DNA from: a virus | Lineage: Duplodnaviria > Heunggongvirae > Uroviricota > Caudoviricetes | IMG/VR virus record: IMGVR_UViG_2617270998_000003 | Span: 1 to 12,248 of that record | Length of the DNA: 12,248 nucleotides | Reading direction: 5' to 3' (one strand) | Shown: positions 1,097-5,021 of the stretch, piece after piece | Numbering within the stretch: position 1 is the stretch's first letter | How the letters are laid out: each line of letters starts with the position of its first letter | The notes under the pieces: model-generated | What the model was told of the DNA's origin: nothing | The model's database searches: none | Seen by the model: the letters and a program-made list of their open reading frames with translations, nothing else | Made by a program: the position numbers and the translations under genes

Positions 1097-1128
1097 AATA
1101 CGCCCCATGCAGGGGCGTATTATTTACT
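1097..1128. terminator. Bidirectional intrinsic terminator between the convergent Q and KAP NTPase genes
   Basis: Perfect 10-bp stem AATACGCCCC (1097-1106) / GGGGCGTATT (1112-1121) with 5-nt loop ATGCA; T/A-rich on both sides (TTAATAAAA upstream, TATTTACT downstream). Sits between stop codons at 1091-1093 and 1124-1126. Confidence 0.65.
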
Positions 1129-2455
1129 GAATGAATGACATTTGATTGATATATTTTATCAATAACTCTCTGGGTGTAGTGCTCCAAAAATTTAGGTGGT
1201 CATAATCAGTATAAACTTTGGTGAACCTTTTTAGTTCTTCATCACTTTTAGGAGCAAATCGCTCATTAAGAGTAATACTGTCTTTAATTATTCCAAAGAA
1301 TACAATTGATATTTTAGGGATTTTCGAACTCATCTCATAAGAATAAGGTATCTCTTTTATTTTAAGCAGGTCTGCTAAATAAGATATAGATTCAGCGGTA
1401 ATTTCGTGTTTTAGTTTTTCCTTGTCACCAAAGCAATGTATGAAGACAGCTACGACAAAGATCATATTTATAAAACGATCACTACTGTTGTCTTCATTGT
1501 CGTTTAACAGTTGAAAAATGTTAAGATTGCGTGAAAATGTTTGTGTTTCACGTAATGATAAGTTGGTTCGTTGAATTAAATCACGGATAAAATAACCTGA
1601 TAAGCTATTGATTTCATTTAATGATCTTGTTTTTTCTACAAGGTAATTCCAATATATAACAGAGGCTTTACATACGTCGTGACCATTTATCAAACATGTA
1701 TCTGGAAGCGTGATGGTATATTTTATAAACTTGTCAAGATACTTTTGTGAGTTAATACTATAACCATAAATATGATTTATCGATGCTCTTAATTGTTCTG
1801 TGTTTGTAACTAAAATAAAAAAGACATTATTGATGTCAAAAATGTGTTTTATTGTTTCAATGACATTTGTTGAAAAACTCGGCTTACATCGGTCTAATTC
1901 ATCAATTATAATTACTATCTTTTGATTTTCTGAAATACTTTCGATGCAAGATTTAAGTGAATTTATGTTTTTCTCTGATTCCATATGGTCTTCAAGCAAA
2001 TTTTCAATAGTCCCATCTATTGCTGCATTGCTTGCTTTCTTCATCGCATCTTGGAATTCTTCGGCAACTTCACTAGCCTCCTGTCGTAAAAACCAACCTG
2101 CACCAGCTTTTAGTACAGTTTTTAAACCAAATCGAATTGCAGGAAGAGATCTCTTAATGAAGTGTTGTTTTTCTTCCTCAGGCAAAATGCTGGCAATTGC
2201 AGAGGTTATGAGAAGTAATGGAGATTCTGCATGATCCCCTTTAAAGGCATCAATATAAACAACTTTAGATTCGGGTTCTTGCTCAATAATGAGATTTTTC
2301 AGTTTGATACTAAATTCTGATTTCCCTGTTCCCCATGCGCCATCTATTACCAGTGGTGAAATGTCTGCCTCTGGTTTTAGCAACTTGATGATATTTTCAG
2401 CGATGTTTCTTCGTTGGAACTCGTCACGTTCAGTGAACGATAGTGTATCTAACAT
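1124..2455 (-). CDS. KAP-family P-loop NTPase (PifA-like), 443 aa, in an AT-rich insertion
   Basis: Walker A GAWGTGKS near residue 40; Walker B with the KAP-type hhhhDELDR signature (IVIIIDELDRCKP); no evident transmembrane helices. Only minus-strand gene in the window; about 32% GC versus over 50% in flanking phage genes. Confidence 0.8.
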   Translation of the reverse strand: MLDTLSFTERDEFQRRNIAENIIKLLKPEADISPLVIDGAWGTGKSEFSIKLKNLIIEQEPESKVVYIDAFKGDHAESPLLLITSAIASILPEEEKQHFIKRSLPAIRFGLKTVLKAGAGWFLRQEASEVAEEFQDAMKKASNAAIDGTIENLLEDHMESEKNINSLKSCIESISENQKIVIIIDELDRCKPSFSTNVIETIKHIFDINNVFFILVTNTEQLRASINHIYGYSINSQKYLDKFIKYTITLPDTCLINGHDVCKASVIYWNYLVEKTRSLNEINSLSGYFIRDLIQRTNLSLRETQTFSRNLNIFQLLNDNEDNSSDRFINMIFVVAVFIHCFGDKEKLKHEITAESISYLADLLKIKEIPYSYEMSSKIPKISIVFFGIIKDSITLNERFAPKSDEELKRFTKVYTDYDHLNFWSTTPRELLIKYINQMSFIQ

Positions 2456-2752: not shown

Positions 2753-3079
2753 ATGCCTCATAACCCAAATACCTGGCTGGAGTTGTTCCAGAGCTGGTGG
2801 CGTGGAGATACGCCTCTTGGCGCAGTGATTATGTCGATTGTTATGGCTGGATTGCGCATTGCCTATTTTGGCGGTGGTGGTGGGGGGAAGCGAAAAACGC
2901 TCGAGATTTTGCTCTGTGGTGCTCTGACGCTGACTTTTGCATCCGCTCTTGAGTATGTCGGATGGCCTAAATCACTTTCTGTTGCCATTGGTGGCGGTGT
3001 TGGGCTGATTGGTGTCGATGCAATTCGTGGGGCTGCAATGAGAGTGATCGGTAACAAGTTTGGTGGCTCTAAGGAGTAA
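2753..3079 (+). CDS. S: Holin, lambda S-like (class I, three predicted TMDs)
   Basis: 108 aa with hydrophobic segments and a charged C-terminus; resembles lambda S in architecture; immediately precedes the endolysin with stop 3077-3079 and the R SD AAGGAG at 3071-3076. Confidence 0.8.
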   Translation: MPHNPNTWLELFQSWWRGDTPLGAVIMSIVMAGLRIAYFGGGGGGKRKTLEILLCGALTLTFASALEYVGWPKSLSVAIGGGVGLIGVDAIRGAAMRVIGNKFGGSKE

Positions 3080-3082
3080 TTT

Positions 3083-3559
3083 ATGCAGATACTAAATTCC
3101 CAGCGTAAAGCTTTCCTGGATATGGTGGCATGGTCAGAAGGAACGGATAACGGGCGACAACCGACACATAATCACGGTTATGACGTTATTGTCGGTGGTG
3201 AACTCTTCACTGATTACTCCGACCACCCTCGCAAACTTGTCACGCTAAACCCAAAACTTAAATCAACGGCTGCTGGACGCTACCAGATTCTTTCCCGATG
3301 GTGGGATGCTTACCGTAAACAGCTTGGTCTGAAAGACTTCTCCCCCAAAAGCCAGGACGCAGTGGCATTGCAGCAGATTAAAGAGCGTGGCGCTTTACCG
3401 ATGATTGATCGCGGTGATATCCGTCAGGCTATCGATCGTTGCAGCAATATCTGGGCTTCACTGCCGGGTGCAGGTTACGGTCAGTATGAACATAAAATCG
3501 GTGACCTGATTGCCCGATTTAAAGAGGCTGGTGGGGGGGGAAATGAAGTTGAGTTATAA
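3083..3559 (+). CDS. R: Endolysin, lambda R-type lytic transglycosylase
   Basis: Near-identity over long stretches to lambda R as I recall it (QRKAFLDMVAWSEGTDNGRQ..., HGYDVIVGGELFTDYSDHPRKLVTLNPKLKST, RYQILSRWWDAYRKQLGLKDFSPKSQDAVALQQIKERGALPMIDRGDIRQAIDRCSNIWASLPGAGYGQ). SD AAGGAG 3071-3076. Confidence 0.95.
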   Translation: MQILNSQRKAFLDMVAWSEGTDNGRQPTHNHGYDVIVGGELFTDYSDHPRKLVTLNPKLKSTAAGRYQILSRWWDAYRKQLGLKDFSPKSQDAVALQQIKERGALPMIDRGDIRQAIDRCSNIWASLPGAGYGQYEHKIGDLIARFKEAGGGGNEVEL

Positions 3560-3977
3560 GCTGATTATCGCTGCTTTTTTCGTTACTGCCATTGGTTCTT
3601 TCATCTGGTCAGCCAGCTACTACTACAGCAAATATCAGTACGAAAAGAAACGTGCTGATGAGGCTGTACAAAATGCTGAATCAGCAACTGCCATTACCAA
3701 TAACGTCCTGCAATCAATGCAAATCGTCAATACAGTTTGGGAGGCTAACCAGCATGCAAAACAGCAGATCGCACTGGAGTCACAGAGAACCCAGGAAGAT
3801 ATCAAAGTGGCTGTTGCGGATGATGATTGTGCTTCACGTCCTGTGCCTGCTGCCGCTGCTGACCGGTTGCGAAAGTACGCGGACAGTTTACGTAACAGTA
3901 CCTCCAATTCCGCTTCCAGCTACTCTGACTTTGGAAACGCCAGTACCGCACATACCAGATACCCTGACCTATGGTGA
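3543..3977 (+). CDS. Rz: i-spanin (Rz-like), N-terminal TMD
   Basis: ATG at 3543 follows the G8 tract (3533-3540) and overlaps the 3' end of R; the track's 3510 start is a TTG inside R. N-terminal hydrophobic helix KLIIAAFFVTAIGSFIW and a charged, helical central region. C-terminal 25 aa are Ser-rich and atypical. Confidence 0.65.
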   Translation: MKLSYKLIIAAFFVTAIGSFIWSASYYYSKYQYEKKRADEAVQNAESATAITNNVLQSMQIVNTVWEANQHAKQQIALESQRTQEDIKVAVADDDCASRPVPAAAADRLRKYADSLRNSTSNSASSYSDFGNASTAHTRYPDLW

Positions 3978-4068
3978 CAGCCTGGAGTTGAATGTGAGTC
4001 TGTTGTCGGCGTTGGAACAGTGTAATTTTGATAAAGCGACAATAAAAAGTATTGATGCTAACAAGTAA
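3820..4068 (+). CDS. Rz1: o-spanin (Rz1-like) lipoprotein, +1 frame relative to Rz
   Basis: ATG at 3820 inside Rz; signal peptide MMIVLHVLCLLPLLTG|C with lipobox LTGC; Pro-rich mature region VPPIPLPATLTLETPVPHIP. Extends 91 nt past the Rz stop. Confidence 0.6.
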   Translation: MMIVLHVLCLLPLLTGCESTRTVYVTVPPIPLPATLTLETPVPHIPDTLTYGDSLELNVSLLSALEQCNFDKATIKSIDANK

Positions 4069-4130
4069 AAGAGCCTGCACCTTTATAGAGATGATTCCAT
4101 GTTAATATCGCTCCTTTAACGGGAGGCATT

Positions 4131-4622
4131 ATGATGGATTGGAATATGTGGTCTGCTATTGGGGCTTGTGGTTCGGCTATCGCGTCTTTTGGGGCGTTGT
4201 GTTATGCCCGTAAGGCGTTAAACACATGGAATAGACAGGAGCAATTTAAAGTAAAGTTAGAGTTTAAGAGAGCTTTACTTCAGTTGGAGGATGCCTTTGA
4301 GGCAATGCCTGATAATTGGAATTCCGTACAGTATAGAATAGCCAAAACATTTGCGTCTCAGCGGGGCAACGATATATATAATGGAGTTGTTGAGGCTGAA
4401 AAACAGCTGTTTTATAAAAAACAAAACCTTAATTTAGCGTACGGACATTCCGTACAGGCATGGGTTTTGTGTGAAGAACTGTTTAAAGACAATACTATTC
4501 ATGATGAATGGAAAGCTTTCAGAATTAGTTATGATAATTACATTCTGAATGGTGGGAACAAAAATGATTATTTGCCAATGATAAAAAATATATATTCAAA
4601 AATTCCTGTGTTTAATGGTTGA
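4131..4622 (+). CDS. Hypothetical protein, 163 aa, N-terminal hydrophobic helix; AT-rich insertion
   Basis: SD GGGAGG (4121-4126) then ATG 4131 (second ATG at 4134). N-terminus WSAIGACGSAIASFGALCYA is TM-like. About 35% GC. No family recognised. Confidence 0.6.
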   Translation: MMDWNMWSAIGACGSAIASFGALCYARKALNTWNRQEQFKVKLEFKRALLQLEDAFEAMPDNWNSVQYRIAKTFASQRGNDIYNGVVEAEKQLFYKKQNLNLAYGHSVQAWVLCEELFKDNTIHDEWKAFRISYDNYILNGGNKNDYLPMIKNIYSKIPVFNG

Positions 4623-4634
4623 TTTCTATACGAA

Positions 4635-4659
4635 ATGGAAAATATGTTCCATCTTTTTT
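4635..4659 (+). terminator. Weak candidate terminator after the hypothetical gene
   Basis: 6-bp stem ATGGAA (4635-4640) / TTCCAT (4647-4652), loop AATATG, then CTTTTTT (4653-4659). Stem is AT-rich and may be too weak. Confidence 0.3.
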
Positions 4660-4670
4660 AGGGAAATTAT

Positions 4671-5021
4671 ATGCCCCCACGAACCCCAAAAGCCTGCCGC
4701 ATTCGAGGCTGCCGCAATACCACCACGGACCCGTCAGGCTACTGCGAAAGCCACAAAAGCGAAGGCTGGAAGCAATACAAGCCAGGACAATCCCGTCATC
4801 AGCGCGGCTACGGTTCGAAATGGGATGCTATCCGTGAACGTGTACTGAAGCGTGACAAGGGCCTGTGTCAGTTATGTCTGCGTGCCGGTGTGGTGCGTGA
4901 GGCGAAAACCGTTGACCACATCATCCCTAAAGCGCATGGCGGCACTGATGCCGACAGTAATCTGCAGAGTCTGTGCTGGCCCTGCCATAAGGCGAAGACG
5001 GCCCGTGAACGGTTAAAGTGA
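4671..5021 (+). CDS. HNH endonuclease, terminase-associated (HK97 gp74-like)
   Basis: Cys/His motifs CRIRGC...C, CQLC, DHIIPKAHGGTDADSNLQSLCWPCH; located directly upstream of terminase small subunit, as in HK97-like phages. Confidence 0.9.
   Translation: MPPRTPKACRIRGCRNTTTDPSGYCESHKSEGWKQYKPGQSRHQRGYGSKWDAIRERVLKRDKGLCQLCLRAGVVREAKTVDHIIPKAHGGTDADSNLQSLCWPCHKAKTARERLK

Follow-up and report, generated by a model that had tools for sequence, protein, structure and literature searches.

It is well recognised that morons in the late regions of lambdoid prophages supply genes for lysogenic conversion and for action against phages. Lambda Bor and its Escherichia coli homologue Iss, outer-membrane lipoproteins of about 97 amino acids (aa), are encoded on the opposite strand in the slot between Rz/Rz1 and the packaging genes. 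HK97 gp15 is a moron-encoded inner-membrane protein of 62 aa with superinfection-exclusion activity; its gene lies inside the late operon, among the tail genes, with an annotated or predicted terminator, and the protein has a single hydrophobic helix. Here we analyse ORF163, an open reading frame (ORF) for a 163-aa protein at positions 4131-4622 (plus strand) of a 12,248-nucleotide stretch of viral DNA (IMG/VR record IMGVR_UViG_2617270998_000003; hereafter the window), which is the late region of an SfV/HK97-like lambdoid E. coli prophage. ORF163 very probably constitutes an accessory moron cassette at the lysis/packaging junction. What is new is an apparently conserved coupling, in an uncharacterised family of moron proteins, between a -10 promoter element and an arm complementary to the Shine-Dalgarno (SD) sequence.

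ORF163 shares with Bor/Iss the slot between Rz/Rz1 and the packaging genes and, if its predicted topology is right, the character of a small accessory envelope protein of lambdoid prophages. It differs from them in having no lipoprotein signal and no sequence similarity, in lying on the late-operon strand, and in its predicted inner-membrane anchor with the bulk of the protein in the cytoplasm. With HK97 gp15 it shares the position inside a late operon, the single hydrophobic helix and, in the translation initiation region, a predicted hairpin that sequesters the SD, although an hhalign comparison with gp15 gave a probability of 0.1%, i.e., no detectable homology. In the gp15 leader (L064 1668-1709; L numbers denote the related loci that we retrieved) both SD and AUG are paired, at -10.7 kcal/mol (z = -1.57), and SD masking might be common in late-operon morons. 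The four-helix-bundle domains of NasR (NIT), CheA (P1), NarX/NarQ and the chemoreceptor sensors were also counted among the closest known systems. A regulatory parallel comes from the T4 genes e, soc, 49 and I-TevI, in which a helix sequesters the SD or the AUG and has its 5' arm encoded within or just after the promoter; the read-through RNA is silent and the promoter-proximal RNA is translated (PMC3014915). The same geometry of -10, 5' arm and SD helix is predicted for ORF163 and its homologues. However, the T4 promoters are gp55-type late promoters that switch genes on late, whereas the sigma-70-type -10 predicted at ORF163 would keep late read-through off, so that the temporal effect would be the opposite.

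ORF163 is present and intact, as an earlier preliminary description of the window had stated, and ends with the stop codon TGA at 4620-4622. Its low GC content, put there at about 35%, was measured as 37.0% (35% at third codon positions), compared with 47.6% in Rz, 57.3% in the HNH endonuclease gene and 49% in the whole window. The SD sequence ascribed to it, GGGAGG, was found at 4121-4126 (plus strand), 4 nt before a first in-frame ATG at 4131 and 7 nt before a second at 4134. In the allele at locus L005, which is 69% identical, the first of these codons is TTG and the second ATG, and the conserved start is therefore probably ATG 4134, with an SD spacing of 7 nt and a product of 162 aa. In the public contig record the gene is under-annotated at source, as a 51-aa C-terminal fragment only (KDT80122.1, MCEELFKDNT..., 4467-4622).

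The case for a moron cassette is carried by how the gene is distributed. In 40+ prophage or viral loci a homologue stands after the holin-endolysin-spanin genes and before the packaging genes, on the same strand. The exact ORF163 protein occurs in 154 blocks of the assembly collection and occupies this slot at 8/8 places shown, where it adjoins either a GH24/holin-S or a GH19/two-holin cassette; it is also seen in combination with two different head modules and with tail modules that are of siphovirus type or bear a sheath. On the other hand, it is absent from SfV, SfIV and vB_EcoM-720R4 though both flanks match (88-92% identical), and its presence or absence varies between prophages that are otherwise 90-97% identical. 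Among 5426 complete E. coli genomes, the HNH-TerS module was found in 1109 and the ORF163 family in 9. Compared across related prophages, as the preliminary description had proposed, ORF163 is thus rare, and the slot otherwise holds iss/bor, small ORFs or nothing. The likeness to the lambda bor slot drawn in that description is borne out, since iss occupies the same slot in the related E. coli prophages L065 and L067 (1382-1675 on the minus strand in both), next to HNH-TerS modules that are 96.4% and 94.4% identical, respectively. In four sampled relatives the slot contained iss on the opposite strand in two, a small hypothetical ORF in one and no gene in the last (L068). Other cargo replaces ORF163 in phage 689R6 and in L065, L066 and L067; the 168-aa ORF in the slot of 689R6 is unrelated to ORF163.

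Composition tells the same story as distribution. The GC fraction of 36 distinct homologues averages 0.39 vs 0.50 in their flanks and is lower in all 36, so that two marks of a moron in the sense of Hendrix and Juhala, variable presence and distinct composition, are found here. In many distant homologues the stop codon is followed at once by a strong intrinsic terminator (e.g., AACCGCC-TCCG-GGCGGTTTTTTATTG). The hairpin and T-run noted earlier downstream of ORF163 do exist (4635-4659, plus strand; arms ATGGAA 4635-4640 and TTCCAT 4647-4652, T6 at 4654-4659), but in this copy they form a weak and, at most, possibly leaky terminator: the 6-bp stem has two G-C pairs, the fold of 4615-4672 is not better than shuffled sequences (z = -1.33), and the terminator scan made no call at this hairpin. 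The L005-type allele has no terminator at the equivalent place. Altogether, the suggestion that ORF163 is an independent accessory gene between lysis and packaging genes is upheld by its presence/absence pattern, its AT-richness, a conserved -10, the terminators of its homologues and the shared cargo slot, and the gene behaves as horizontally mobile accessory cargo at a hotspot.

We then compared ORF163 with the L005 allele. The flanking DNA is 92-100% identical, whereas identity falls to 60-70% across 4320-4678, a stretch that comprises the C-terminal 100 residues and a short spacer. The ratio of non-synonymous to synonymous substitution rates (dN/dS) is 0.09-0.15 over residues 1-62 and 0.34-0.36 over the C-terminal part; the synonymous rate (dS) of that part is about 1, compared with about 0.2 in the flanks. 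With dN/dS well below 1, ORF163 is under purifying selection, and its C-terminal domain is an old, divergent module exchanged by recombination rather than decaying sequence.

Kyte-Doolittle analysis and AlphaFold2 place a predicted transmembrane helix at residues ~7-26 (WSAIGACGSAIASFGALCYA; 4149-4208, plus strand), which is rich in small residues and hence suited to helix-helix packing. Across the 36 homologues (alignment A4), hydrophobicity and flank charges agree among members; the charges flanking the hydrophobic segment average -1.3 on the N-terminal and +2.9 on the C-terminal side, which by the positive-inside rule predicts an N-out/C-in topology; a membrane anchor of this topology is likely. 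Structure prediction, one of the checks suggested in the preliminary description, gave a confident AlphaFold2 model with the family alignment (predicted local distance difference test score 90.6, predicted template modelling score 0.77), in which a continuous helix (residues 3-58) is followed by a helical bundle (65-76, 86-118, 122-140 and 148-156). The "TM-like helix followed by a soluble domain" described from the sequence therefore stands in outline, in that the hydrophobic stretch is real and a helical domain is modelled after it, but the stretch is only moderately hydrophobic: its Kyte-Doolittle value (residues ~6-25) is 1.42, the lowest in the family, compared with a family mean of 1.80.

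The predicted membrane helix leads into a conserved juxtamembrane helix and motif (A26, A29, W33, Q36, E37, K40, F45, K46 and M59-P60; 4206-4313, plus strand), the residues of which are invariant or nearly invariant columns in the 36-sequence alignment. The order common to the family is the hydrophobic helix, A-L-x-(T/S)-W-x-x-Q-E-x-x-K-x-K-x-x-F-K-K, M-P and a helical region of lower conservation that contains W111, E115, W127, Y137 and, C-terminally, F-V-F. This last region corresponds to the variable C-terminal helical-bundle domain delimited by the L005 comparison, dN/dS and AlphaFold2 (residues 64-163; 4320-4619, plus strand). ORF163 would thus cross the inner membrane once, leaving a very short N-terminus in the periplasm, and would continue with a basic, highly conserved helix at the cytoplasmic face of the membrane and a variable cytoplasmic helical bundle. 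A lipoprotein, which the tetrapeptide IGAC at residues 10-13 might suggest, was considered and rejected: the N-terminus MMDWNMWSAIGAC has no basic n-region, with no basic residue before Cys13 and only 12 residues in front of it. Membership of Bor/Iss found no support either, as there is no lipobox-type signal peptide and no Pfam match. In a partial Salmonella member (P0078), the heptad SAIASFG/L is tandemly triplicated within the membrane helix.

The statement that the protein matches nothing recognisable was nearly right. Its sole library match is phrog_6169 (E = 1.3e-63, 214.9 bits; residues 1-162 on positions 4-164 of the 165 in the profile hidden Markov model), a small enterobacterial phage family, membership of which explains nothing because the family has no assigned function. 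Word-indexed searches, even with a profile, returned close relatives only, and the family was defined by an exhaustive HMMER search, which found 45 relatives among 1.84 billion protein cluster representatives; related loci were retrieved with a 10-sequence alignment. Full-length members have 138-220 aa and one common architecture, and the close homologues, from Escherichia, Citrobacter, Salmonella and Shigella, go under the name "hypothetical protein". An Enterobacter sp. kpr-6 prophage carries two diverged paralogues of the family about 1.6 kb apart (L009 and L031; 5944-6465 and 8100-8660). Pfam and NCBIfam scans of ORF163 gave no match, and at E <= 0.01 Pfam offered no family for any of the 36 members either. 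Sequence and profile searches of the PDB returned nothing below E = 0.01, and fold searches gave no functional match. The UniRef label DUF4760 on the Salmonella members P0003 and P0007 was not reproduced with Pfam: PF15956 (DUF4760), itself a family without known function, matched neither ORF163 nor, even at E <= 10, P0003 or P0007, nor the 36 aligned members at E <= 1. A literature search by PHROG identifier, protein accessions and DUF4760 found nothing relevant to the family; a paper on Gifsy GiPD474 has as its subject a ParA-like ATPase that is unrelated to ORF163.

Upstream of the gene, a predicted extended -10 element (TGtTAATAT, 4100-4108, plus strand; TG at 4100-4101, TAATAT at 4103-4108) is supported by conservation in the family. 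The homologues have in common a hexamer (TATAAT, TACAAT, TAAAAT, TAGAAT or TAATAT) placed about 30 nt ahead of the start codon, the rest of the spacer being unalignable. Once 21 distinct upstream regions, from genes whose products share only about 27-35% identity, had been re-aligned with a covariance model, the columns of TAnAAT showed T in 20/21, A in 21/21, any base, A in 17/21, A in 20/21 and T in 21/21. Such a hexamer lies at -40 to -26 in 18/27 family members vs 8/149 control gene starts in the same loci, and at 5% of random positions inside equally AT-rich genes. Promoter-like matches on the minus strand inside ORF163 (3 vs 2.3 expected) show no excess over shuffled sequences.

The five to seven bases that directly follow the -10 are complementary to the SD of the gene. 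In the window, an anti-SD arm CTCCT (4111-4115, plus strand), identified from the minimum free energy (MFE) fold and from covariation, lies between the -10 and the predicted transcription start and, in the MFE fold of 4103-4136, pairs with GGGAG (4121-4125) at -5.7 kcal/mol. Corresponding pairs directly after the hexamer are CACCTCA/TGAGGTG in many homologues, ATCCTC/GAGGAT and CCCCTCA/TGGGGGG. The mean MFE of the initiation region is -8.2 kcal/mol in the family vs -4.0 kcal/mol in 54 control genes with an SD (p = 6e-7), and the SD is fully paired in 18/25 family members vs 5/54 controls. When the upstream regions were re-aligned with the covariance model, after a plain alignment had failed, 78.8% of the cells were paired vs 68.1% in shuffles (0/500 of which reach this value), compensatory changes were present in 6/7 pairs, and controls with a slid partner were 40-61% paired. 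The covariance model matches only these sites in 305 kb, and neither this region nor the related loci have a match in Rfam.

Transcription starts about 7 nt after a -10 element, and at ORF163 the start would accordingly fall at ~4115, the 3' end of the anti-SD arm. No structure is predicted (0 kcal/mol) for RNA 4115-4150, as expected from the promoter of the gene itself; this RNA would be translatable, because the masking arm is absent from it. The long Q-dependent late transcript that arrives from the lysis genes would include the arm, and its ribosome-binding site would be folded away; the read-through RNA folds at -12.5 kcal/mol in the window and at -18.4 kcal/mol (z = -3.2) for the L005 allele, whose start codon is sequestered too. 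The expected result is a low level of protein from the resident prophage, held down during the late lytic phase of the phage itself. The probability of such promoter-embedded masking of translation falls, in our estimate, a little short of even.

What might such a gene do? ORF163 is very probably a self-contained moron that separates holin, lysozyme and Rz/Rz1 on the lysis side from HNH, TerS and TerL on the packaging side, and its product would have a membrane-sited function that benefits the lysogen. Our first choice for that function is action at the inner membrane against other phages, by exclusion or abortive interference, because the protein is predicted to be membrane-anchored, its membrane-proximal module is nearly invariant and its distal bundle is swappable. 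The two-module build suggests a conserved membrane action with variable specificity: the N-terminal module would provide membrane anchoring and assembly, and the exchangeable C-terminal bundle would provide target specificity. Such regulation would suit a protein from which the lysogen profits but which is unwelcome, or damaging at high levels, once the phage has entered its own late phase. The defence role raised in the preliminary description is nevertheless doubtful when taken by itself, and the whole explanation, in which cassette, topology, masking and role are held together, is put forward tentatively.

Several observations weigh against this explanation. The Kyte-Doolittle value of the hydrophobic segment lies below the usual membrane threshold. 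A two-hexamer promoter scan calls no promoter upstream of ORF163 and no -35 is recognisable, so that conservation of the -10 is the sole basis of the promoter call; in L024, L028 and L035, moreover, the TATAAT pairs with the start-codon region, and RNA pairing could partly explain its conservation there. The window hairpin is weak at -5.7 kcal/mol, with z values of about -1.0 (34 nt) and -0.3 (66 nt), and so is the downstream terminator of this copy. The alignment that shows covariation was fitted to the structure and its sequences are related, and RNAalifold on a plain MAFFT alignment of the upstream regions returned no consensus structure, because the arms are out of register in that alignment. 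With regard to function, Pfam, PADLOC and NCBIfam gave no defence, exclusion or toxin family for ORF163: a scan against PADLOC-DB 2.0 returned 0 families at E <= 0.1 (the neighbouring KAP NTPase matched PDC-S20 in the same search), and ORF163 does not resemble the known superinfection-exclusion proteins represented in Pfam, SieB and Imm among them. Lastly, an anti-defence gene of the Acb2/Tad1 family neighbours the homologue in some phages, and the slot is therefore not specific to defence cargo.

Among the other explanations, a late-expressed lysis accessory, i.e., an antiholin or a modulator of lysis timing whose helix binds the holin and whose hairpin sets a low protein-to-holin ratio, is the first to be weighed. 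The gene stands directly after holin, endolysin and spanin, on the same strand and beside three types of lysis cassette, the abundance of small residues in its membrane helix recalls holins and SAR domains, and lambda S is known to be tuned translationally by RNA structure. However, identical or near-identical lysis cassettes do without ORF163 (SfV, 720R4, L068), the same protein accompanies cassettes that are unrelated to each other (holin S with GH24 in one, two holins with GH19 in the other), and in L030 the 3.6 kb of contig that precede the homologue contain no lysis gene. A gene meant to be read from the late transcript would also have no need of a conserved -10 or of strong terminators, and the holin and antiholin families in Pfam and PHROGs do not match ORF163. 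Taken together, these points make a lysis accessory improbable.

A counter-defence or host-takeover factor acting in lytic growth, such as one that inhibits a membrane-embedded defence system of host or prophage, would account for the recombining, variable C-terminal domain, as expected for a molecule in an arms race, and for the Acb2/Tad1-family gene directly upstream and the glycosyltransferases downstream of homologues in other phages. Masking of the ribosome-binding site on the late read-through RNA speaks against a main role in the lytic phase, there is no sign of early expression, and ORF163 has no similarity to any known anti-defence protein; we give this explanation little likelihood.

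Lysogenic conversion unrelated to phages, in which ORF163 would alter envelope physiology or stress tolerance of the host as iss/bor alters serum resistance, draws on the moron architecture and on the replacement of iss/bor by ORF163 at the same slot in closely related prophages. It has to contend with the lack of a lipobox-type signal peptide, with the rarity of the family (9/5426 complete E. coli genomes) and with the prediction that only about six residues of this copy lie outside the inner membrane, which makes a Bor-like surface role unlikely; its chances are slim. That ORF163 is a chance or decaying ORF without function, which the 51-aa piece annotated in the original GenBank record and a few truncated or rearranged database members (P0004, P0040, P0078) might suggest, is hardly credible given full-length homologues that keep the motifs down to about 16-30% identity, dN/dS well below 1, the confident AlphaFold2 model and the 154 occurrences of the exact protein.

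The remainder of the window is arranged as follows. A DUF968 protein (30-710) and the antiterminator Q (713-1093) precede a KAP-family P-loop NTPase of 443 aa (1124-2455, minus strand; PADLOC PDC-S20, 2.5e-176), followed by a lambda-type holin (2753-3079), a lysozyme (3083-3559) and Rz (3510-3977) with an embedded Rz1 ending at 4068. Beyond ORF163 come the HNH endonuclease (4671-5021), a P27-type small terminase, the large terminase, portal, protease and capsid genes. The KAP NTPase gene (33% GC), placed between Q and the holin on the opposite strand, is the other AT-rich insertion of the window; PDC-S20 is a candidate defence family, and weaker PADLOC matches of the protein were to PifA and QatA. 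Related prophages carry other cargo at the position between Q and holin, such as a TIR-domain protein in L068.

In more distant phages the cargo of the lysis/packaging slot extends to a DUF2560 gene, glycosyltransferases and, immediately before the homologue, a gene of the Acb2/Tad1 family. The last of these encodes a hairpin-domain protein (Pfam 3.9e-17; L041 5316-5597, also in L042, L043 and L046) of a family of anti-CBASS/anti-Thoeris sponges, so that the slot also carries counter-defence cargo. Glycosyltransferase genes lie between the homologue and HNH/terminase in L025 (6579-8036 and 8468-9061), L026 (6825-8339) and L053 (1561-3120); the families are phrog_1579 in L025 (2e-224) and phrog_854, and the ORFs of L026 and L053 were matched to the same gene by judgement of their sequences. 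At the edges of cargo genes in the slot, distant relatives also show an imperfect palindrome of about 37 nt, composed of CATTA(C/T), n, a variable stem, a loop, the matching stem, n and (G/A)TAATG. It is found at approximately L037 5866-5903, L010 6980-7019, L026 6531-6569, L054 6512-6550 and L023 6497-6535, as well as in L036, L047, L051, L025 and L041; the outer arms are conserved and the inner stems seem to covary. The palindrome does not occur in the window and has no match in Rfam; its candidate roles are those of an operator, an RNA element and a boundary sequence for recombination.

In its strictest form, our favoured explanation makes ORF163 a membrane-active exclusion or abortive-infection moron whose product appears in the lysogen alone, translation from the Q-antiterminated late transcript of the phage itself being silenced; we regard this form as unlikely. 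If it were true, the logic of T4 gene e would operate in reverse and give the inducing phage a built-in self-immunity, and the conserved membrane module would be the effector, with the recombining C-terminal bundle as specificity module. Should neither the two-module build nor the regulation hold, ORF163 would be an ordinary hypothetical prophage gene. A -10 followed by an anti-SD arm would be a simple way to insulate a gene from a very strongly transcribed late operon. If this arrangement is confirmed, the same logic may hold for other morons, the leader of HK97 gp15 being similar, and it would help to predict which prophage cargo genes are expressed by lysogens.

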